The notes under the pieces were generated by a model. The model was not told the origin of the DNA, did not search any database, and saw only the letters and a program-made list of their open reading frames with translations. Both the position numbers and the translations under genes were made by a program. This document shows positions 6,170 through 64,000 of a DNA stretch of 64,000 bases, in pieces; the first letter of the stretch is position 1, and every line of letters begins with the position of its first letter. The DNA comes from Eledone cirrhosa (lineage: Eukaryota): positions 25,296,001-25,360,000 of the forward strand of contig OZ024743.1 in assembly GCA_964016885.1 (NCBI GenBank), in the 5' to 3' direction.

Positions 6170-6456
6170 GTGTGTATGTGTGTGTGTGTGTTTTGGGGAA
6201 ATTTAAAATGTGTGTGTCGTAACGCATATGAGCATAATAATAGTCGATCACATAAAAGAGTATTTGTGAAAATCGGGTAAAGTTCTCCGTGGTATATATA
6301 TATATAAAAATATATCTGAGGCGCTTCCAATTCAGGAGTCATGTTCGTTCATTAACAGATCGCTCCACGAGCTGATCGATAGTGAAACATATGTAATATG
6401 TAATTAAATATGTATATGATGCAACACTGAGTCTTTGTTCCCTTATATAATAATAC

Positions 6457-6490
<34 letters not shown>

Positions 6491-6499
<9 letters not shown>

Positions 6500-6682
6500 A
6501 GAAGAGCTTCTACAGGACTAGAACTGTTTCATTCGCGAGAAATCATCAGGAAGCTCCTGAGGATTTCTCACGAATGAAATATTTCTAGTCCTGTAGAAGC
6601 TCTTCTATATTAAAACATTTATACACTGCTATGTATTGAGTACCTTACTTATTGTGGTTACCTCCGATTCAACCCGAAATAA

Positions 6683-6686
<4 letters not shown>
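6491..6686. mobile_element. Short fold-back Penelope-like pLTR fragment with two back-to-back hammerhead cores, in (TA)n
   Basis: Inverted repeat 6491-6615 centred on AGC (~6553). Minus strand CTGATGA TTTC TCGC GAAT GAAAC; plus strand CTGAGGA TTTC TCAC GAAT GAAAT. Tail contains GTATTGAGTAC. TA tracts on both sides. Confidence 0.7.
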
Positions 6687-6750
<64 letters not shown>

Positions 6751-11034: not shown

Positions 11035-11250
11035 CACTTGGGCCCACCACTATGTGTCAATAATTGTCACAAGTGTAGTGTTTGTACCAGAGTTTTCAAG
11101 TCGCTGGCTGGACTAAAAAGTCACACTCGTTCAGCGCATCGGTAGGGGTTCTCCTACATGGATATAAAGTAGTAGCCGTACTCGAAAACGAGTTGGCAGC
11201 CACCATGTATGTATGTATGTATGTATGTATGTATGTATGTATGTATGTAT
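11035..11250 (+). mobile_element. 3' fragment of an RTE-derived non-autonomous retroelement with a C2H2 remnant and (TGTA)n tail
   Basis: Translates as ..CSVCTRVFKSLAGLKSHTRSAHR*, like the C-terminal C2H2 finger of RTE/BovB ORFs. Followed by a short UTR and TGTA repeats. Near-identical to 11635-11800. Confidence 0.75.
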
Positions 11251-11935
11251 GTCGGGTCGTTTGCGACTAAACTGGCAACCCCACCAAGGTTTCTTGGTGA
11301 GGAGATGACTTTGGACATCCTGCAGGTCTAAAAACAAAACCTGTCAAAGGGAAAAGGAGCTCGTAAGAGTCAATGGCCATCCAAAATCACCGGGAGAGAT
11401 GACCCCTTAGCCTTTGTCAAGGCAGAATTCTAGGAGAAGGAAAACTCTGATATAACACCTGCAACCCTGATGGTATCCAATGATGTTGACTTGTTCTTCT
11501 TTTTGGTAAATATCATCTTGGTTAAGAGAGTGGGACTGGCTTTGTGCAGTGCCTTTGCTCACTATAAAAGCTTCACAGCACAGGCATTGCTTTATATCTG
11601 GAGATCTCTCTGCACTTGTCGTCACATGGTACCATGGGCCCAGCACTATGTGTCAATAATTGTCACAAGTGTAGTGTTTGTACCAGAGTTTTCAAGTCGC
11701 TGGCTGGACTAAAAAGTCACACTCGTTCAGCGCATCGGTAAGGGTTCTCCTACATTGATATAAAGTAGTGGCCGTACTCGAAAACGAGTTGGCAGCCACC
11801 ATGTATGTATGTATGCATGTATGTATATATGTATGCATGTACGTATGTATGTTTAAATGTATGTATGTATGCATGTACGTATGTACGTTTATATGTATGC
11901 ATGCATGTATATATGCATGAATGTATGTATGCATG
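11251..11935 (+). mobile_element. ~550-bp internally deleted RTE-like element plus degenerate (TGTA)n tail
   Basis: A 5' UTR-like part (CTAGGAGAAGGAAAACTCTG) is joined directly to the C2H2/3' end. Highly similar to the minus-strand copy at 36144-36559. Confidence 0.75.
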
Positions 11936-16212: not shown

Positions 16213-16409
16213 CCCCAGAGTTCAGAAACCGTATAATATGAGCACATAAAATATAGTACAGAGTAGCGCCGGTTAAGAGATTTCAGGCATAGATTTGAAT
16301 GATATACCAAGATATAAACCCACGGGTGTGTGAAATAATGTTTCATATTATTGCTGCAATGGATATGGAATAAAATTATATGAATTATGCAATTACATAT
16401 ATACACATA

Positions 16410-16493
<84 letters not shown>

Positions 16494-16521
16494 CATATAT
16501 ATATATGTATATATATATATG

Positions 16522-16663
<142 letters not shown>

Positions 16664-16842
16664 TTATATAGTGTAGCAAATAGCCATACTCCAACATCAC
16701 AAAGCACATTTTAATTTCTCTAATTGAGGCATTTGTGCACTAAAAGAGCGTTACAACTAATTATATGGCTATATTCCAGATTCCTCCTTTCATGTCATTG
16801 ATATAATATATATATTTTAAAATTCGATATTTATATATATGT

Positions 16843-16845
<3 letters not shown>

Positions 16846-16925
<80 letters not shown>

Positions 16926-17129
16926 ATATATATATATATATATATAAACATATATATATATATATATATAAACATATATATATATATATATATAAACATA
17001 TATATATATATATATAAACATATATATATATATATATATATAAACATATATATATATATATATAAACATATATATATATATATATAAACATATATATATA
17101 TATATATAAACATATATATATATATATAT
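16846..17129. repeat. (TA)n with periodic AAAC interruptions (~22-24-bp minisatellite); continues in the same orientation at 21848-22196
   Basis: TATAAACATATA repeats on both sides of the 310-bp array, never as TGTTTA. Confidence 0.9.
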
Positions 17130-19713
17130 GTGAATATAGACATAGAATATTCGAAAATATTCTGTATGTTTATAATAAACATTTTGAAGACCTAATCGCT
17201 ATAGAATAGAATACGTCACGTATTACAATTAGATTCTCGATAAAAGCAAGGGAAGTAATCTACGCGTTTCATTCTTATTAGAAATCTTCAGGACTACATA
17301 TCCAGTGCTTTTATCGAGAATGACACAGCTAGAGACTTATAGAATACTTAGCTGTGTACATGAACTGGTTTGAAAGAGCGGTTGCCGGTCCGGCAGAAAT
17401 TAGAAATTGGAATAAATGCTCTGAAATAGCGATATATATGTGAATATAGACATAGAATATTCGAAAATATTCTGTATGTTTATAATAAACATTTTGAAGA
17501 CCTAATCGCTATAGAATAGAATACGTCACGTATTACAATTAGATTCTCGATAAAAGCAAGGGAAGTAATCTACGCGTTTCATTCTTATTAGAAATCTTCA
17601 GGACTACATATCCAGTGCTTTTATCGAGAATGACACAGCTAGAGACTTATAGAATACTTAGCTGTGTACATGAACTGGTTTGAAAGAGCGGTTGCCGGTC
17701 CGGCAGAAATTAGAAATTGGAATAAATGCTCTGAAATAGCGATATATATGTGAATATAGACATAGAATATTCGAAAATATTCTGTATGTTTATAATAAAC
17801 ATTTTGAAGACCTAATCGCTATAGAATAGAATACGTCACGTATTACAATTAGATTCTCGATAAAAGCAAGGGAAGTAATCTACGCGTTTCATTCTTATTA
17901 GAAATCTTCAGGACTACATATCCAGTGCTTTTATCGAGAATGACACAGCTAGAGACTTATAGAATACTTAGCTGTGTACATGAACTGGTTTGAAAGAGCG
18001 GTTGCCGGTCCGGCAGAAATTAGAAATTGGAATAAATGCTCTGAAATAGCGATATATATGTGAATATAGACATAGAATATTCGAAAATATTCTGTATGTT
18101 TATAATAAACATTTTGAAGACCTAATCGCTATAGAATAGAATACGTCACGTATTACAATTAGATTCTCGATAAAAGCAAGGGAAGTAATCTACGCGTTTC
18201 ATTCTTATTAGAAATCTTCAGGACTACATATCCAGTGCTTTTATCGAGAATGACACAGCTAGAGACTTATAGAATACTTAGCTGTGTACATGAACTGGTT
18301 TGAAAGAGCGGTTGCCGGTCCGGCAGAAATTAGAAATTGGAATAAATGCTCTGAAATAGCGATATATATGTGAATATAGACATAGAATATTCGAAAATAT
18401 TCTGTATGTTTATAATAAACATTTTGAAGACCTAATCGCTATAGAATAGAATACGTCACGTATTACAATTAGATTCTCGATAAAAGCAAGGGAAGTAATC
18501 TACGCGTTTCATTCTTATTAGAAATCTTCAGGACTACATATCCAGTGCTTTTATCGAGAATGACACAGCTAGAGACTTATAGAATACTTAGCTGTGTACA
18601 TGAACTGGTTTGAAAGAGCGGTTGCCGGTCCGGCAGAAATTAGAAATTGGAATAAATGCTCTGAAATAGCGATATATATGTGAATATAGACATAGAATAT
18701 TCGAAAATATTCTGTATGTTTATAATAAACATTTTGAAGACCTAATCGCTATAGAATAGAATACGTCACGTATTACAATTAGATTCTCGATAAAAGCAAG
18801 GGAAGTAATCTACGCGTTTCATTCTTATTAGAAATCTTCAGGACTACATATCCAGTGCTTTTATCGAGAATGACACAGCTAGAGACTTATAGAATACTTA
18901 GCTGTGTACATGAACTGGTTTGAAAGAGCGGTTGCCGGTCCGGCAGAAATTAGAAATTGGAATAAATGTTCTGAAATAGCGATATATATGTGAATATAGA
19001 CATAGAATATTCGAAAATATTCTGTATGTTTATAATAAACATTTTGAAGACCTAATCGCTATAGAATAGAATACGTCACGTATTACAATTAGATTCTCGA
19101 TAAAAGCAAGGGAAGTAATCTACGCGTTTCATTCTTATTAGAAATCTTCAGGACTACATATCCAGTGCTTTTATCGAGAATGACACAGCTAGAGACTTAT
19201 AGAATACTTAGCTGTGTACATGAACTGGTTTGAAAGAGCGGTTGCCGGTCCGGCAGAAATTAGAAATTGGAATAAATGCTCTGAAATAGCGATATATATG
19301 TGAATATAGACATAGAATATTCGAAAATATTCTGTATGTTTATAATAAACATTTTGAAGACCTAATCGCTATAGAATAGAATACGTCACGTATTACAATT
19401 AGATTCTCGATAAAAGCAAGGGAAGTAATCTACGCGTTTCATTCTTATTAGAAATCTTCAGGACTACATATCCAGTGCTTTTATCGAGAATGACACAGCT
19501 AGAGACTTATAGAATACTTAGCTGTGTACATGAACTGGTTTGAAAGAGCGGTTGCCGGTCCGGCAGAAATTAGAAATTGGAATAAATGCTCTGAAATAGC
19601 GATATATATGTGAATATAGACATAGAATATTCGAAAATATTCTGTATGTTTATAATAAACATTTTGAAGACCTAATCGCTATAGAATAGAATACGTCACG
19701 TATTACAATTAGA
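17122..19713 (-). mobile_element. 310-bp tandem retrozyme-like array, left block (~8.4 monomers, 8 hammerheads on the minus strand)
   Basis: TGAATATAGACATAG recurs at 17131, 17441, 17751 ... 19611 (period 310). Each unit contains the reverse complement of a hammerhead core (first at 17255-17297). Only one substitution was seen by eye (C>T at 18969). Confidence 0.9.
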
Positions 19714-21842
19714 AACCAGTTCATGTACACAGCTAAGTATTCTATAAGTCTCTAGCTGTGTCATTCTCGATAAAAGCACTGGATATGTAGTCCTGAAGAT
19801 TTCTAATAAGAATGAAACGCGTAGATTACTTCCCTTGCTTTTATCGAGAATCTAATTGTAATACGTGACGTATTCTATTCTATAGCGATTAGGTCTTCAA
19901 AATGTTTATTATAAACATACAGAATATTTTCGAATATTCTATGTCTATATTCACATATATATCGCTATTTCAGAGCATTTATTCCAATTTCTAATTTCTG
20001 CCGGACCGGCAACCGCTCTTTCAAACCAGTTCATGTACACAGCTAAGTATTCTATAAGTCTCTAGCTGTGTCATTCTCGATAAAAGCACTGGATATGTAG
20101 TCCTGAAGATTTCTAATAAGAATGAAACGCGTAGATTACTTCCCTTGCTTTTATCGAGAATCTAATTGTAATACGTGACGTATTCTATTCTATAGCGATT
20201 AGGTCTTCAAAATGTTTATTATAAACATACAGAATATTTTCGAATATTCTATGTCTATATTCACATATATATCGCTATTTCAGAGCATTTATTCCAATTT
20301 CTAATTTCTGCCGGACCGGCAACCGCTCTTTCAAACCAGTTCATGTACACAGCTAAGTATTCTATAAGTCTCTAGCTGTGTCATTCTCGATAAAAGCACT
20401 GGATATGTAGTCCTGAAGATTTCTAATAAGAATGAAACGCGTAGATTACTTCCCTTGCTTTTATCGAGAATCTAATTGTAATACGTGACGTATTCTATTC
20501 TATAGCGATTAGGTCTTCAAAATGTTTATTATAAACATACAGAATATTTTCGAATATTCTATGTCTATATTCACATATATATCGCTATTTCAGAGCATTT
20601 ATTCCAATTTCTAATTTCTGCCGGACCGGCAACCGCTCTTTCAAACCAGTTCATGTACACAGCTAAGTATTCTATAAGTCTCTAGCTGTGTCATTCTCGA
20701 TAAAAGCACTGGATATGTAGTCCTGAAGATTTCTAATAAGAATGAAACGCGTAGATTACTTCCCTTGCTTTTATCGAGAATCTAATTGTAATACGTGACG
20801 TATTCTATTCTATAGCGATTAGGTCTTCAAAATGTTTATTATAAACATACAGAATATTTTCGAATATTCTATGTCTATATTCACATATATATCGCTATTT
20901 CAGAGCATTTATTCCAATTTCTAATTTCTGCCGGACCGGCAACCGCTCTTTCAAACCAGTTCATGTACACAGCTAAGTATTCTATAAGTCTCTAGCTGTG
21001 TCATTCTCGATAAAAGCACTGGATATGTAGTCCTGAAGATTTCTAATAAGAATGAAACGCGTAGATTACTTCCCTTGCTTTTATCGAGAATCTAATTGTA
21101 ATACGTGACGTATTCTATTCTATAGCGATTAGGTCTTCAAAATGTTTATTATAAACATACAGAATATTTTCGAATATTCTATGTCTATATTCACATATAT
21201 ATCGCTATTTCAGAGCATTTATTCCAATTTCTAATTTCTGCCGGACCGGCAACCGCTCTTTCAAACCAGTTCATGTACACAGCTAAGTATTCTATAAGTC
21301 TCTAGCTGTGTCATTCTCGATAAAAGCACTGGATATGTAGTCCTGAAGATTTCTAATAAGAATGAAACGCGTAGATTACTTCCCTTGCTTTTATCGAGAA
21401 TCTAATTGTAATACGTGACGTATTCTATTCTATAGCGATTAGGTCTTCAAAATGTTTATTATAAACATACAGAATATTTTCGAATATTCTATGTCTATAT
21501 TCACATATATATCGCTATTTCAGAGCATTTATTCCAATTTCTAATTTCTGCCGGACCGGCAACCGCTCTTTCAAACCAGTTCATGTACACAGCTAAGTAT
21601 TCTATAAGTCTCTAGCTGTGTCATTCTCGATAAAAGCACTGGATATGTAGTCCTGAAGATTTCTAATAAGAATGAAACGCGTAGATTACTTCCCTTGCTT
21701 TTATCGAGAATCTAATTGTAATACGTGACGTATTCTATTCTATAGCGATTAGGTCTTCAAAATGTTTATTATAAACATACAGAATATTTTCGAATATTCT
21801 ATGTCTATATTCACATATATATCGCTATTTCAGAGCATTTAT

Positions 21843-21848
<6 letters not shown>
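19713..21848 (+). mobile_element. 310-bp tandem retrozyme-like array, right block (~6.9 monomers, 7 hammerheads on the plus strand), inverted relative to the left block
   Basis: TCATGTACAC recurs at 19721, 20031 ... 21581. The sequence is the reverse complement of the left-block unit. The switch is at ...CAATTAG-A-AACCAGT (19713). Confidence 0.9.
19787..19829 (+). ncRNA. Minimal type I hammerhead ribozyme (representative; + copies every 310 bp to 21647, - copies at 17255+310n to 19425)
   Basis: GTAGTC (stem I) - CTGAAGA - T TTCT AATA AGAA T (stem II) - GAAA - CGCG - TA - GATTAC (stem I'). Stem III is the palindrome ACGCGT. Predicted cleavage after GUA at 19823. Stem I is extended by a perfect 16-bp helix, 19763-19778 with 19836-19851. 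Confidence 0.85.
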
Positions 21849-21883
<35 letters not shown>

Positions 21884-21973
21884 TATATATATATATATAT
21901 ATAAACATATATATATATAAACATATATATATATATATATATATAAACATATATATATATATATATATATATA

Positions 21974-22034
<61 letters not shown>

Positions 22035-22127
22035 ATATATATATATATATATATATAAACATATATATATATATATATAAACATATATATATATATATAT
22101 ATAAACATATATATATATATATATATA

Positions 22128-22184
<57 letters not shown>

Positions 22185-22388
22185 ATATATATATAAATTA
22201 TGTTTTATGTTTATATGTAAGCATACACCTATTTATGTGTGCAGTTATATATATATATATATAACTACATACAGAAGTAGATGTATGCTTACATATAAGC
22301 TTAATATATATACTTACGTATATACATGCATACTTAAAACCATGTATAAATACACAAACACCTTCACACACACAAACACACACACACC

Positions 22389-36559: not shown

Positions 36560-37095
36560 ATACATACATACATACATACGAACATACATACATACATACA
36601 TGTACATAAATACATACATAATTATACATGTATGCGTACATATATTCGCAATGAGTAAATGCTACTTATACAAAACCCACACACAATTCCCATAATTCGG
36701 CATCTCCTCCAGGAATTGATATGTATGCACATTCAAATTTTAGAAGAAGAAGCTGCCGTCTGACTACTTTTATCGATTCTGTGTTTACATTTGCTTGAAA
36801 GCTAATGTTCTGCTTCTGTTACCGTATTAGTTATATAAACTAATTCTCAATTAATTGTCTCATTTGAAATTTCTGCTATACTACGAGATTTGATACGGCT
36901 CCAAATAGTTTGTTAGCTTGTGTATTGCGAAGATTACGGTAGAAAGAGGAATAATGCATTGAAAATTGTTTTGCTGGAAATCTCTTTGTTACAAATCTTT
37001 GTAAAATGCATTAAAACTCATAGCAATGAAGATAAGAAAGTGAGTTCGATTTTAGAAAATTGAATCACTTCCAATGATTAAAAATCTCTGATTAG

Positions 37096-37440
37096 TTTGA
37101 ACAAAATAATAATTGTTTCTACTTTAGGCACAAGGCCAGCAATTACGCAGTGCATTACTGGTACTTTATTTTATCGACCCCGTAAGGATGAAAAGCAAAG
37201 TAAACCTCGGCGAGATTTGAACTCAGACCGTTTGAACAAAATAATAATTGTTTCTACTTTAGGCACAAGGCCAGCAATTATACAGTACATTACTGGTACT
37301 TTATTTTATCGACCCCGTAAGGATGAAAGGCAAAGTTGACCTCGGCGGGATTTGAACTCAGACTGTAAAGGGACGTAATTATGCTAGAAAGCATGGCGTC
37401 CAACCCTCTACCGATACTGCCTTTTGAACAAAATAATAAT
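37096..37440 (-). mobile_element. Two tandem SINE copies (one 5'-truncated) with an 18-bp target sequence present three times
   Basis: TTTGAACAAAATAATAAT at 37096, 37231 and 37423 brackets the reverse-complement SINE bodies. Confidence 0.85.
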
Positions 37441-46348: not shown

Positions 46349-49300
46349 GTAGTGAGGGATGGGGAGGATGAGAGAGATGGAGGCTTGACAGTGGGAGTTC
46401 GGCTCTTCTGTGTTTGGACCTGGTGTAGTTAAGAGATGGGGAGGGTGAGAGAGATGGAGGCTTGACAGTGGGAGTTCGGCTCCTCTGTGTTCGGACCTGG
46501 TGTTGATATGAGATGGGGAGGGTGAGAGAGATGGAGGCTTGACAGTGATAGTTCGGCTCCTCTGTGTTCGGACCTGGTGTAGTTAAGAGATGGGGAGGTT
46601 GAGTGAGATGGAGGCTTGACAGTGGGAGTTCGGCTCCTCTGTGTTCGGACCTGGTGTTGATATGAGATGGAGGAGGGTGAGAGAGATGGAGGCTTGACAG
46701 TGGGAGTTCGGCTCCTCTGTGTTCGGACCTTGTGTAGTTAAGAGATGAGGAGAGTGAGAGAGATGGAGGCTTGACAGTGGGAGTTCGGCTCCTCTGTGTT
46801 CGGACCTGGTGTAGTTAAGAGATGGAGAGGGTGAGAGAGATGGAGGCTTGACAGTGGGAGTTCGGCTCCTCTGTGTTCGGACCTGGTGTAGTTAAGAGAT
46901 GGGGAGGGTTAGAGAGACGGAGGCTTGACAGTGGGGGTTCGGCTCCTCTGTGTTCGGACCTGGTGTAGTTAAGAGATGAGGAGAGTGAGAGAGACGGAGG
47001 CTTGACAGTGGGGGTTCGGCTCCTCTGTGTTCGGACCTGGTGTAGTTAAGAGATGAGGAGAGTGAGAGAGACGGAGGCTTGACAGTGGGGGTTCGGCTCC
47101 TCTGTGTTCGGACCTGGTGTAGTTAAGAGATGGGGAGGGTGAGAGAGATTGGGGATTGACAGTGGGAGTTCGGCTCTTCTGTGTTCGAACCTGGTGTAGT
47201 TAAGAGATGGAGAGGGTGAGAGAGATGGAGGCTTGACAGTGGGAGTTCGGCTCCTCTGTGTTCGGACCTGATGTAGTTAAGAGATGCGAAGAGTGAGAGA
47301 GATGGAGGCTTGACAGTGGGAGTTCGGCTCCTCTGTGTTCGCACCTGGTGTAGTTAAGAGATGGGGAGGGTGAGACAGATGGAGCCTTGACAGTGGGAGT
47401 TCGGCTCCTCTGTGTTCGGACCTGATGTAGTTAAGAGATGCGGAGAGTGAGAGAGATGGAGGCTTGACAGCGGGAGTCCGGCTCCTCTGTGTTCGGACCT
47501 TGTGTAGTTAAGAGATGGGGAGGGTGAGAGAGATGGAGCCTTGACAGTGGGGGTTCGGCTCCTCTGCGTTAGGAGCTTGTGTAGATAAGAGATGGGGAGG
47601 TTGAGAGAGATGGAGGCTTGATAGTGGGAGTTCGGCTCCTCTGTGTTGGACCTGGTGTAGTTAAGAGATGGGGAGGTTGAGTGAGATGGAGACTTGACAG
47701 TGGGAGTTCGGCTCCTCTGTGTTCGGACCTGGTGTAGTTAAGAGATGGGGAGGGTGAGAGAGATGGAGGCTTGACAGTCGGGTCCTATGTGTTCGGACAT
47801 GGTGTACTTGAGAAAAGGGGAGAGTGAGAGAGATTGGGGATTGACAGTGGGAGTTCGGCTCCTCTGTGTTAGGAGTTTGTGTAGTTAAGAGATGGGGAGG
47901 GTGAGAGAGATGGAGGCTTAACAGTGGGAGTTCGGGTCCTCTGTGTTCGGACCTGGTGTAGTTAAGAGATGGGGAGGTTGAGTGAGATGGAGACTTGACA
48001 GTGGGAGTTCGGCTCCTCTGTGTTCGGACCTGGTGTAGTTAAGAGATGGGGAGGGTGAGAGAGATGGAGGCTTGACAGTCGGGTCCTATGTGTTCGGACA
48101 TGGTGTACTTGAGAAAAGGGGAGAGTGAGAGAGATTGGTGTTGACAGTGGGAGTTCGGCTCCTCTGCGTTAGGAGTTTGTGTAGTTAAGAGATGGGGAGG
48201 TTGAGAGAGATGGAGGGGTGACAGCGGGAGTTCGGCTCCTCTGTGTTCGGACCTGGTGTAGTTAAGTGATGGGGAGGGTGAGAGAGATGGAGGCTTGACA
48301 GTGGGAGTGCGGCTCCTCTGTGTTCGGACCTGGTGTAGTTAAGAGATGGGGAGAGTGAGAGAGATGGAGGCTTGACAGTGGGAGTTCGGCTCTTCTGTGT
48401 TCGGACCTGGTGTAGTTAAGAGATGCGGAGAGTGAGAGAGATGGAGGCTTGACAGTGGGAGTTCGGCTCTTCTGTGTTCGGACCTGGTGTAGTTAAGAGA
48501 TGCGGAGAGTGAGAGAGATGGAGGCTTGACAGTGGGAGTTCGGCTCTTCTGTGTTCGGACCTGGTGTAGTTAAGAGATGCGGAGAGTGAGAGAGATGGAG
48601 GCTTGACAGTGGGAGTTCGGCTCTTCTGTGTTCGGACCTGGTGTAGTTAAGAGATGCGGAGAGTGAGAGAGATGGAGGCTTGACAGTGGGAGTTCGGCTC
48701 TTCTGTGTTCGGACCTGGTGTAGTTAAGAGATGCGGAGAGTGAGAGAGATGGAGGCTTGACAGTGGGAGTTCGGCTCTTCTGTGTTCGGACCTGGTGTAG
48801 TTAAGAGATGCGGAGAGTGAGAGAGATGGAGGCTTGACAGTGGGAGTTCGGCTCTTCTGTGTTCGGACCTGGTGTAGTTAAGAGATGGGAAGGGTGAGAG
48901 AGATGGAGGCTTGATAGTGGGAGTTCGGCTCCTCTGTGTTCAAACCTGGTGTAGTGAAGAGATTGGGAGGGTGAGAGATATGGAGGCTTCACAGTGGGAG
49001 TTCGGGTCCTATGTTTTCGGACCTGGTGTACTTGAGAGATCGGGAGGTTGAGAGAGATGGAGGCTTGACAGTGGGAGTTCGGCTCCTCTGTGTTCGGACC
49101 TGGTGTACTTGAGAGATGGGGAGGTTGAGAGAGATGGAGGCTTGACAGTGGGAGTTTGGCTCCTCTGTGTTCTGACCTGGTGTACTTGAGAGATAGGGAG
49201 GGTGAGAGAGATGGAGGCTGACAGTGGGAGTTCGGCACCTCTGTGTTCGGAACTGGTGTAGTTAAGAGATGGGGAGGGTGAGAGAGATTGGGGCTTGACA

Positions 49301-61300: not shown

Positions 61301-64000
61301 TTAAGAGATGGGGAGGTTGAGAGAGATGGAGGCTTGACAGTGGGAGTTCGGCTCCTCTGTGTTCTGACCTGGTGTACTTGAGAGATAGGGAGGGTGAGAG
61401 AGATGGAGGCTTGACAGTGGGAGTTCGGCACCTCTGTGTTCGGACCTGGTGTAGTTAAGAGATGGGGAGGGTGAGAGAGATTGGGGCTTGACAGTGGGAG
61501 TTCGGCACTTCCGTGTTCGGACCTGGTGTAGTTAAGAGATGGGGAGGCTGAGAGAGATGGAGACTGATAGTGGGAGTTCGGCTCCTCTGTATTCGGACCT
61601 GGTGTAGTTAAGAGATGGGGAGGCTGAGATAGATGGAGACTTGACAGTGGGAGTTCGGCTCCTCCGTGTTCGGACCTGGTGTACTTGAGAGATGGGGAGG
61701 GTGAGAGAGATGGAGGCTTGACAGTGGGAGTTCGGCATCCCTGTGTTCGGACCTGGTGTAGTTAAGAGATGGGGAGGTTGAGTGAGATGGAGACTTGACA
61801 GTGGGAGTTCGGCTCCTCTGTGTTCGGACCTGGTGTTGATATGAGATGGGGAGGGTGAGAGAGATGGAGGCTTGACAGTGGGAGTTCGGCTCCTCTGTGT
61901 TCGGACCTGGTGTAGTTAAGAGATGGGGAGGGTGAGAGAGATTGGTGATTGACAGTGGGATTTCGGCTCTTCTGTGTTCGGACCTGGTGTTGTTATGAGA
62001 TGGGGAGGGTGAGAGAGATGGAGGCTTGACAGTGGGAGTTCGGCTCCTCTGTGTTCGGACCTGGTGTAGTTAAGAGATGAGGAGAGTGAGAGAGATGGAG
62101 GCTTGACAGTCGGGTCCTATGTGTTCGGACATGGTGTACTTGAGAAAAGGGGAGAGTGAGAGAGATTGGGGATTGACAGTGGGAGTTCGGCTCCTCTGTG
62201 TTAGGAGTTTGTGTAGTTAAGAGATGGGGAGGTTGAGAGAGATGGAGGCTTGACAGTGGGAGTTCGGCTCTTCTGTGTTCGGACCTGGTGTAGTTAAGAG
62301 ATGGGGAGGGTGAGAGAGATAGAGGCTTAACAGTGGGAGTTCGGGTCCTCTGTGTTAGGAGTTTGTGTAGTTAAGAGATGGGGAGGTTGAGAGAGATGGA
62401 GGGGTGACAGTGGGAGTTCGGCTCTTCTGTGTTCGGACCTGGTGTAGTTAAGAGATGCGGAGAGTGAGAGAGATGGAGGCTTGACAGTGGGAGTTCGGCT
62501 CTTCTGTGTTCGGACCTGGTGTAGTTAAGAGATGCGGAGAGTGAGAGAGATGGAGGCTTGACAGTGGGAGTTCGGCTCTTCTGTGTTCGGACCTGGTGTA
62601 GTTAAGAGATGCGGAGAGTGAGAGAGATGGAGGCTTGACAGTGGGAGTTCGGCTCTTCTGTGTTCGGACCTGGTGTAGTTAAGAGATGCGGAGAGTGAGA
62701 GAGATGGAGGCTTGACAGTGGGAGTTCGGCTCCTCTGTGTTCAAACCTGGTGTAGTGAAGAGATGGGGAGGGTGAGAGATATGGAGGTTTGACAGTGGGA
62801 GTTCGGGTCCTATGTTTTCGGACCTGGTGTACTTGAGAGATCGGGAGGTTGAGAGAGATGGAGGCTTGACAGTGGGAGTTCGGCTCCTCTGTGTTCAAAC
62901 CTGGTGTAGTGAAGAGATGGGGAGGATGAGAGAGATGGAGGCTTGACAGTGGTAGTTCGGGTCCTATGTTTTCGGACCTGGTGTACTTGAGAGATCGGGA
63001 GGTTGAGAGAGATGGAGGCTTCACAGTGGGAGTTCGGCTCCTCTGTGTTCAAACCTGGTGTAGTGAAGAGATGGGGAGGATGAGAGAGATGGAGGCTTGA
63101 CAGTGTGAGTTCGGGTCCTATGTTTTCGGACCTGGTGTACTTGAGAGATCGGGAGGTTGAGAGAGATGGAGGCTTGACAGTGGGAGTTCGGCTCTTCTGT
63201 GTTCGGACCTGGTGTACTTGAGAGATAGGGAGGGTGAGAGAGATGGAGGCTGACAGTGGGAGTTCGGCACCTCTGTGTTCGGAACTGGTGTAGTTAAGAG
63301 ATGGGGAGGGTGAGAGAGATTGGGGCTTGACAGTGGGAGTTCGGCACCTCCGTGTTCGGACCTGGTGTAGTTAAGAGATGGGGAGGCTGAGAGAGATGGA
63401 GACTGATAGTGGGAGTTCGGCTCCTCTGTATTCGGACCTGGTGTAGTTAAGAGTTGGGGAGGCTGAGAGAGATGGAGACTTGACAGTGGGAGTTCGGCTC
63501 CTCCGTGTTCGGACCTGGTGTACTTGAGAGATGGGGAGGGTGAGAGAGATGGAGGCTTGACAGTGGGAGTTCGGCATCCCTGTGTTCGGACCTGGTGTAG
63601 TTAAGAGATGGGGAGGTTGAGTGAGATGGAGACTTGACAGTGGGAGTTCGGCTCCTCTGTGTTCGGACCTGGTGTTGATATGAGATGGGGAGGGTGAGAG
63701 AGATGGAGGCTTGACAGTGGGAGTTCGGCTCCTCTGTGTTCGGACCTGGTGTAGTTAAGAGATGGGGAGGGTGAGAGAAATTGGTGATTGACAGTGGGAG
63801 TTCGGCTCTTCTGTGTTCGGACCTGGTGTTGTTATGAGATGGGGAGGGTGAGAGAGATGGAGGCTTGACAGTGGGAGTTCGGCTCCTCTGTGTTCGGACC
63901 TGGTGTAGTTAAGAGATGAGGAGAGTGAGAGAGATGGAGGCTTGACAGTGGGAGTTCGGCTCCTCTGTTTTCGGACCTGGTGTAGTTAAGAGATGGAGAG
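46349..64000. repeat. 77-bp G-rich satellite array (~229 monomers, runs off the window end) with higher-order repeats
   Basis: Consensus GAGAGAGATGGAGGCTTGACAGTGGGAGTTCGGCTCCTCTGTGTTCGGACCTGGTGTAGTTAAGAGATGGGGAGGGT. Period 77 (46381 to 46458). Diagnostic variants recur at offsets 154, 301, 2215, 3063 and 3074. Confidence 0.97.

Follow-up and report, generated by a model that had tools for sequence, protein, structure and literature searches.

The window analysed here is a stretch of 64,000 nt from the genome of Eledone cirrhosa (assembly GCA_964016885.1, contig OZ024743.1, positions 25,296,001 to 25,360,000 of the forward strand). Positions 17122 to 21848 of this window are occupied by a single insertion of a retroelement with a 310-nt, non-coding unit and a hammerhead motif. 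It is a non-LTR (long terminal repeat) retrozyme and consists of two tandem arrays that are fused by their 5′ ends within a (TA)n microsatellite. Coordinates are those of the window and a lap is one 310-nt unit. Unit nucleotides are numbered from the first base past the predicted cut, GAAACGCGTA^. The 3′ ends were scored as maximal matches, and the overlaps with the target (ATATATAT at one end and AT at the other) are therefore counted in.

16397–17129: left flank, (TA)n target array interrupted by AAAC units
17122–19713, minus strand (here the ribozyme-sense strand): arm A, 2592 nt in 8.36 laps; RNA-sense 5′ end at unit nt 28 (19713) and 3′ end at nt 139 (17122); TRF period 310, 8.4 copies
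17122–17129, minus strand: site A end, unit nt 132–139 (ATATATAT), overlapping the (TA)n target
18969, minus strand: single-lap substitution G152A in ribozyme sense (C>T on the plus strand)
19713, no strand: 5′-to-5′ junction with 1 nt of microhomology (an A common to both arms)
19713–21848, plus strand: arm B, 2136 nt, 6.89 laps; 5′ end at nt 200 (19713) and 3′ end at nt 165 (21848); TRF period 310, 6.9 copies
21814–21848, plus strand: tail, unit nt 131–165, between start sites A and B
21847–22195: right (TA)n target array, AAAC interruptions as on the left and in identical orientation

The units of arms A and B are rotations of one another, and across the 4,728 nt of both arms the C>T at 18969 is the sole mismatch to the unit. 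The tail belongs to the end of arm B only, and its terminal AT overlaps the target. An earlier note, made from the sequence of this stretch alone, had reported strands that diverge from 19713 with 1 nt of microhomology, 5′ ends at nt 28 and 200, 3′ ends at nt 139 and 165, and no end at the cut. When re-measured the junction proved exact, and all four ends were confirmed.

The unit and its hammerhead motif

Each unit of 310 bp has a GC content of about 0.33 and contains one hammerhead motif. The copies are placed as follows.

19787–19829, plus strand: type I hammerhead motif, one copy, predicted cleavage after 19823
Plus strand, seven hammerhead copies: predicted cuts after 19823, 20133, 20443, 20753, 21063, 21373 and 21683
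Minus strand, eight hammerhead copies: predicted cuts from 17260/1 to 19430/1, spaced by 310 nt

The order of the motif is stem I 5′ strand, CUGAAGA, stem II, GAAA, stem III, GUA^ and stem I 3′ strand. Stem III has 2 bp within the palindrome ACGCGT, and stem I carries a long extension (fold z = −5.8). No Rfam family matched within the window at gathering score; Rfam HH9 aligned weakly to the core with 17 bits (gathering score 52) and an E-value of 0.35. The core that defines a type I hammerhead, CUGANGA, GAAA and NUH with stems I–III and an open stem I, is present. The class is assigned from motif and fold, and self-cleavage is predicted. No open reading frame (ORF) of at least 150 aa occurs over the element, which is non-coding and lacks the ORF with reverse transcriptase (RT) and GIY-YIG domains of an autonomous Penelope-like element (PLE). 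A tandem unit within 150–450 bp, GC below 50%, the lack of LTR and ORF and dispersal in many copies are the marks of non-LTR retrozymes, and by unit size, motif and dispersal the element is one of them; its circular RNA form is predicted.

A young dispersed family in (TA)n

The unit was matched at 100% on many chromosomes. Patterns joining the unit to (TA)n gave 797 B-type and 855 A-type matches genome-wide on the forward strand, from which a family size of about 1,600 loci was obtained by doubling the forward-strand counts, since a variable gap inflates the reverse counts. This size is consistent with the 43 B-type ends found in 0–80 Mb of sequence C1. The family, which inserts in (TA)n, is young, and its roughly 1,600 copies are nearly unmutated.

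Three sets of loci (labelled L and a number) were compared. Set 1 comprised the window and 21 loci taken from the list of 100% matches, and is biased toward the haplotype of the window. Set 2 held all loci listed by either end pattern in C1 0–80 Mb (n = 53), and is selected for TA flanks. Set 3 consisted of seven held-out loci chosen by the A end alone. The counts exclude L031, which is partly masked and rich in indels, one of the two copies in L079, the pair of segments in the middle of L051 and a second insertion in L160 that was cut by the fetch. In sets 1 and 2 together, 59 of 75 loci had two arms fused 5′-to-5′; two-armed insertions made up 41/53 in the C1 set and 7/7 in the held-out set. 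The remaining 16 of the 75 parsed as a single arm, one of them being interrupted by N and another having a second arm of 11 nt, below the limit of the parser. Single-arm insertions occurred in both types, A and B. Tabulating ends and orientation across loci, a check that the earlier note had proposed, thus showed the layout to be recurrent rather than a one-off. In set 1, which was not selected for flank, all 40 of 40 3′ ends of 21 loci abutted TA-rich runs.

In L079 (4440–8752) one two-arm insertion is present twice in tandem, with many one-base indels and next to a masked stretch; this doubling is either a segmental duplication or an assembly duplicate.

Two fixed 3′ ends, one of each per insertion

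The 3′ ends fell into two narrow clusters approximately 35 nt apart, site A at nt 125–139 (mostly 130 and 139) and site B at nt 165–172 (mostly 165). Every two-arm insertion combined one A end with one B end, in 59/59 loci and thereafter in 7/7 held-out loci (66/66 in all), and no A+A or B+B pair was found among these 66. If the ends were chosen independently, A+B would be expected in about half of the loci.

A one-sided tail of this kind is a known property of PLEs. In PMC8557442 and PMC3846280, passages on PLE structure describe an inverted 5′-truncated copy and a tail of 30–40 bp at one end, and the former calls the origin of inverted copies and one-sided tail undefined. For a purified anole PLE protein, PMC11167929 reports that both target strands are cut and extended, that AT-rich DNA is preferred, and that reverse transcription begins at two internal sites whose spacing equals the tail; a dimer is predicted there. 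The A+B pairing is the PLE tail signature, and priming is programmed at two fixed sites. Arbitrary internal microhomology, where the earlier note had placed the priming, does not account for two narrow clusters with one of each in 66/66 insertions. The same note had taken fixed ends as a possible sign of unequal crossing-over. That expectation was mis-specified, since the 3′ ends are fixed in two clusters, a sign of programmed initiation by PLEs rather than of unequal crossing-over, and the 5′ ends are free.

Arm lengths, 5′ ends and junctions

In the C1 set, 73 of 82 arms were longer than one lap. Mean lengths were 4.7 and 5.7 laps, the longest arm had 27.3, and an exponential distribution of arm lengths was not rejected (Kolmogorov–Smirnov p = 0.25). 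Arm A was the longer in 34 and arm B in 25 of the 59 two-arm loci. The 5′ ends were spread across the unit (chi-square p = 0.07) and were not enriched at the ribozyme cut, with 2/118 lying at most 3 nt from it against 2.7 expected. The arms crossed the cleavage site 671 times with no indel at nt 309–2. At nt 160–172, 5′ ends of the A arm were more frequent than expected (6/59 against about 2.5), a post hoc observation that is not relied on.

Among the 42 junctions free of inserts, 36 had at least 1 nt of microhomology, compared with 47% for random joins (P = 2e-7), and the mean microhomology was 2.2 nt against 0.76 nt at random. Another 17 junctions contained inserted bases, and seven inserts of 6–23 nt were wholly or largely derived from the unit. 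Microhomology and templated inserts are the expected residue of microhomology-mediated joining of two cDNA ends. An L1-type register, in which the B 5′ end lies near the A 3′ end, was tried and rejected (5/59 within 10 nt, 4.0 expected).

A few joins are more elaborate. At L069 (1599–1870), 272 nt of unrelated, GC-richer sequence has been captured between the arms. L051 (2143–2320) has a locally repeated junction and L048 (3540–3614) a 75-nt patchwork of unit-like fragments; the complex joins in these two loci suggest repeated template switching during joining.

Haplotypes and the template

At each locus a set of variants was present in essentially all laps, and arms A and B agreed in haplotype at 33/34 informative loci, the agreement expected by chance being 0.10. 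The 36 C1 loci longer than 1 kb displayed 17 haplotypes, 11 of which were seen once. These once-seen haplotypes were no shorter than the others (median 9.1 laps, up to 22, versus 11.7; p = 0.84), and from this it follows that a new variant passes a bottleneck of one unit and re-expands in both arms. Such a bottleneck is what a circle provides, re-expanding in one step, whereas one-pass copying of a linear donor cannot do so.

The variants present in all laps affected 9/29 non-core sites of the hammerhead and 0/14 core sites (Fisher p = 0.02); they were at N7, in loop II, or were changes that keep or restore pairs. Single-lap variants in the hammerhead core numbered 3, with 4.1 expected. The sparing of the core by all-lap variants suggests that self-cleavage, itself predicted, is required for propagation.

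Single-lap variants occurred at a rate of 4.4e-4 per base and may stem from later mutation or assembly error. The C>T at 18969, for which the earlier note had considered an RT error, is not assignable to such an error.

As to the circular template that the earlier note had put forward, repeated and seamless traversal is supported by the 671 crossings of the cleavage site; the circle itself is what we infer as the probable form, favoured by the haplotype data.

Penelope-like elements and related families in this genome

The genome is rich in PLEs, with 10,596 GIY-YIG candidates, and two ORFs tested elsewhere in the genome encode an RT with a C-terminal GIY-YIG. Two autonomous families have (TA)n ends at two sites past a hammerhead or hammerhead-like motif, at approximately +80/+145 and +123/+170, and the autonomous copies L136 and L139 each combine an inverted layout with both types of end. 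Mobilisation of the 310-nt family by PLEs is well supported by its anatomy: the A and B ends, the tail and the inverted layout, together with the presence of autonomous PLEs of like layout in the same genome.

A second non-coding family (L142–L153, e.g. L146:1130–1765) is 78% identical to the unit over nt 59–154 and has A and B ends at homologous positions; the part of the unit conserved in it is nt 59–200. It is retrozyme-like, older, about 5% diverged and gave 2,891 first-look candidates. Judged by eye, 5/12 fetched loci contained a clear divergent A+B pair, and long arrays were absent from these 12, which were top matches and not a random sample. Arrays may contract with age.

A third hammerhead-motif family is represented at 6444–6746 of the window by a short head-to-head insertion in (TA)n. 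It is related to the 310-nt unit over the ribozyme part, is also found in L135 and L137, and its end adjoins L039. In two autonomous PLE families a degenerate hammerhead-like core, with UUGAAAA replacing CUGANGA, is located upstream of the tail sites (L126:1420 on the minus strand, L127:5130, L132 and L137).

Proposed mechanism and alternatives

The formation of these insertions may be depicted as follows. We consider it rather probable that both ends of a (TA)n cut are primed by a Penelope-like RT/GIY-YIG enzyme on a predicted circular monomer and that each is extended for several laps. Existing arrays would be transcribed, and the transcripts would self-cleave and circularise. A PLE protein, perhaps as a dimer, would bind the region of nt 60–170 and cut both (TA)n strands, after which site B would serve as the start for one DNA end and site A, 35 nt farther along the same RNA, as the start for the other. 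Each RT would then circle by strand displacement, with a roughly constant stopping rate per base, and the two cDNA 3′ ends would be joined by microhomology-mediated end joining and filled in. Where one end gave little or no cDNA, a single-arm insertion would result. The earlier claim that two cDNAs arose from the two ends of a (TA)n break and were joined 5′-to-5′ is supported; the layout recurs in 59/75 and 7/7 loci.

Several observations weigh against this scheme. Single-lap variants recurred within an arm in 7/86 pairs, compared with 3/2,892 between loci, and at two loci, L068 and L156, they recurred across arms; a clean monomer circle predicts no such recurrence unless there is later gene conversion or a re-read template lesion. 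At L081 the allele changes after four laps in one arm, and L041 and L086 have one discordant lap each. The haplotype concordance could also reflect one dominant source locus per cell instead of one molecule. The lengths of arms A and B are weakly correlated (rho = 0.25, p = 0.055), which indicates that the two RTs did not run in lockstep. In the in vitro experiments on the anole PLE in PMC11167929, ribozyme cleavage was dispensable and unprocessed RNA was the main substrate. No pseudo-LTR (pLTR) matching the unit was found in 56 stretches beside GIY-YIG (PF01541) matches, taken from 150 listed of the 10,596; the matches in these stretches were nested insertions of the two related non-coding families only.

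The recurrent and switched variants could be due to gene conversion, a re-read lesion in the circle, template switch, assembly polishing or a heterogeneous multimer as template. Two variants of the scheme were tried and rejected. Lockstep travel of the two RTs is unsupported by the arm-length correlation. As for strict multimeric circles, the recurrences in L064 and L069 are aperiodic, and L068 fits a period of 7 for 2/3 variants.

Double-ended PLE priming might instead have used the transcript of an existing array, a linear multimer left uncleaved, with each arm a one-pass copy; we regard this as unlikely. It agrees with the preference for uncleaved RNA in vitro just cited and with the statement in PMC7229834 that hammerheads with a short stem III cleave weakly as monomers. 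Homogeneous donors would likewise yield one haplotype per locus, and if one heterogeneous multimer had been primed twice, at different laps, the cross-arm variants in L068 and L156 would be accounted for. Daughters copied in this way cannot exceed their donors, yet once-seen haplotypes reach 14–22 laps, for which a step that regenerates length is needed. Priming at the same lap would produce mirrored single-lap variants, of which there were 0/38, a weak argument if these variants are later mutations. The run-off peak expected at the cut is absent, three-arm copies of a donor junction are lacking in the 75 loci except for the local repeat in L051, the B arm stops near the start of the A arm hardly more often than expected (the 5/59 given above), contrary to L1-type twin priming on one linear RNA, and the conservation of the core suggests that cleavage is needed.

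Tandem arrays of retrozymes, which are tied to PLE pLTRs in bioRxiv 10.64898/2026.07.22.740005, are suggested in that preprint to stem from local amplification. Applied here, unequal crossing-over or slippage would have lengthened short inverted insertions of the PLE type at their sites after integration. Laps have indeed been reshuffled to some extent since insertion, as the period-7 pair of variants in L068 and the recurrences in L064 and L069 show. This history is nevertheless improbable, as laps differ by just 4.4e-4 per base and yet 73/82 arms are longer than one lap, as both arms would have had to grow independently at most loci, and as the second family, about 5% diverged, has no long arrays in the 12 top-match loci fetched.

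For head-to-head PLEs, self-priming on the antisense template has been proposed (PMC3846280), and a single priming followed by fold-back, with one arm copied from the other, would explain both the haplotype concordance and the fixed shortfall at one end. Near-palindromic junctions, with 5′ ends at most 10 nt apart, were seen in 7/59 loci against approximately 4 expected. A copied arm should never be the longer one, however, and the distribution of arm lengths is two-sided (A longer in 34/59, B in 25/59), which speaks against one arm being a fold-back copy and largely refutes the idea; the other 5′ offsets are spread over the whole unit, and single-arm insertions of both types exist. We consider this origin very improbable.

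No more credible is an RT that works on linear cleaved monomers and, on reaching a 5′ end, repeatedly jumps to the 3′ end of the same or another monomer. Concatemers could thereby arise without a covalent circle, and the allele switch at L081 shows that a change of template may occur; but the 671 cut crossings carry no indel, there is no excess of stops at the cut, and mixing of haplotypes is rare in spite of the many haplotypes available. An assembly artefact from chimeric fold-back long reads, in keeping with the lack of a contig bridging 19713 among the pieces listed when 4 of 24 listed runs were compared with 19545–19850, can be set aside with near certainty, given that the arms are asymmetric, that the junction differs at nearly every locus while the A+B rule is strict, and that contigs of run X1 hold four other 5′-to-5′ joints as well as A- and B-type TA ends.

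The unit in other runs and other repeats of the window

Run X1 may be of the assembled sample, and contigs in general cannot distinguish a circle from a tandem array. Contigs of runs X1–X20, labelled with 18 organisms and from 17 studies, contain 58–85% of the words of the unit. X4 and X5 carry the same common variants of the unit, and X5 has a 340-nt closed-loop contig. No read was placed on the unit from raw reads that bear the organism label of X5. The unit in runs of other organisms may reflect contamination or horizontal transfer. RNA runs were absent from those listed with the unit, which speaks neither for nor against expression.

The window contains three further repeats. At 11039–11930 lies a repeat with a partial tandem duplication that ends in (ATGT)n and has 85–93% identity to stretches of L127 and L132. 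A 77-bp satellite with at least 230 copies and a strong G skew begins at 46358 and runs past the window end at 64000. At 37095–37363 a 135-bp unit is present in two copies, with a motif that we take to resemble a common cephalopod repeat.

Significance

Two questions meet in this family. The first is whether animal retrozymes spread via circles, as in the hypothesis set out in PMC7229834, or by local amplification, as in the 2026 preprint; the second is how PLEs make their inverted copies and one-sided tail. With about 1,600 near-identical insertions that carry natural haplotype barcodes, both become testable by counting. The odds are about even that the arrays record, across the whole genome, how ribozyme-made circular RNA is naturally reverse-transcribed by rolling circle into animal chromosomes, that a Penelope enzyme invariably primes the two ends of a double-strand cut at two set sites of one RNA, and that this rule would explain the head-to-head layout and one-sided tail of all PLEs. 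For in vitro assays the family provides both RNA and target in minimal form, and it offers a read-out of RT processivity in vivo, at about 1.6 kb per arm and up to 8.5 kb. Identical inverted-repeat arrays are a likely source of double-stranded RNA and of trouble in assembly.

Comparison with known systems

LINE-1 (L1) twin priming likewise uses the two target ends as primers for cDNA and unites the products 5′-to-5′ through microhomology. Its first cDNA is begun at the poly(A) tail and extends to the vicinity of the internal primer, and nothing is copied twice. The insertions described here differ in having two internal primers at fixed positions and two arms that span the same sequence many times.

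The likeness to endonuclease-containing PLEs is closer. As described in parts of PMC8557442, PMC3846280 and PMC11167929, these share the head-to-head inverted layout and a one-sided tail of about 35 nt. Further points in common are targets that are microsatellites or AT-rich, start sites preceded by a hammerhead, and microhomology at the 5′ junction. The present element deviates from PLEs by having no ORF and by arms that consist of many laps of a 310-nt unit. The tail is absolute in our sample (66/66), whereas the PLE papers, in the passages concerned, treat it as optional.

Animal non-LTR retrozymes, in turn, are characterised in sections of PMC7229834 and bioRxiv 10.64898/2026.07.22.740005 by a non-coding tandem unit of about 300 nt with low GC, one type I hammerhead and a dispersed distribution, all of which apply here. 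According to PMC7229834, circular retrozyme monomers occur in coral, mussel and axolotl, and a primed circular RNA is hypothesised to give tandem cDNA by a PLE or LINE RT; in its main text the words 'inverted' and 'orientation' occur 0 times. The present family departs from these retrozymes in that most insertions are two arrays fused 5′-to-5′, whose A and B ends in (TA)n are programmed. In the literature searched, mostly at the level of titles and abstract openings and with most subscription journals and supplements outside it, retrozyme arrays that run over many laps and lie head-to-head were not described, nor was an A+B rule without exceptions or a one-unit template supported by haplotypes. 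The inverted layout and the tail are already known for PLEs, and what appears to be new is the multi-lap head-to-head arrangement of retrozyme arrays, the A+B rule and the haplotype evidence.

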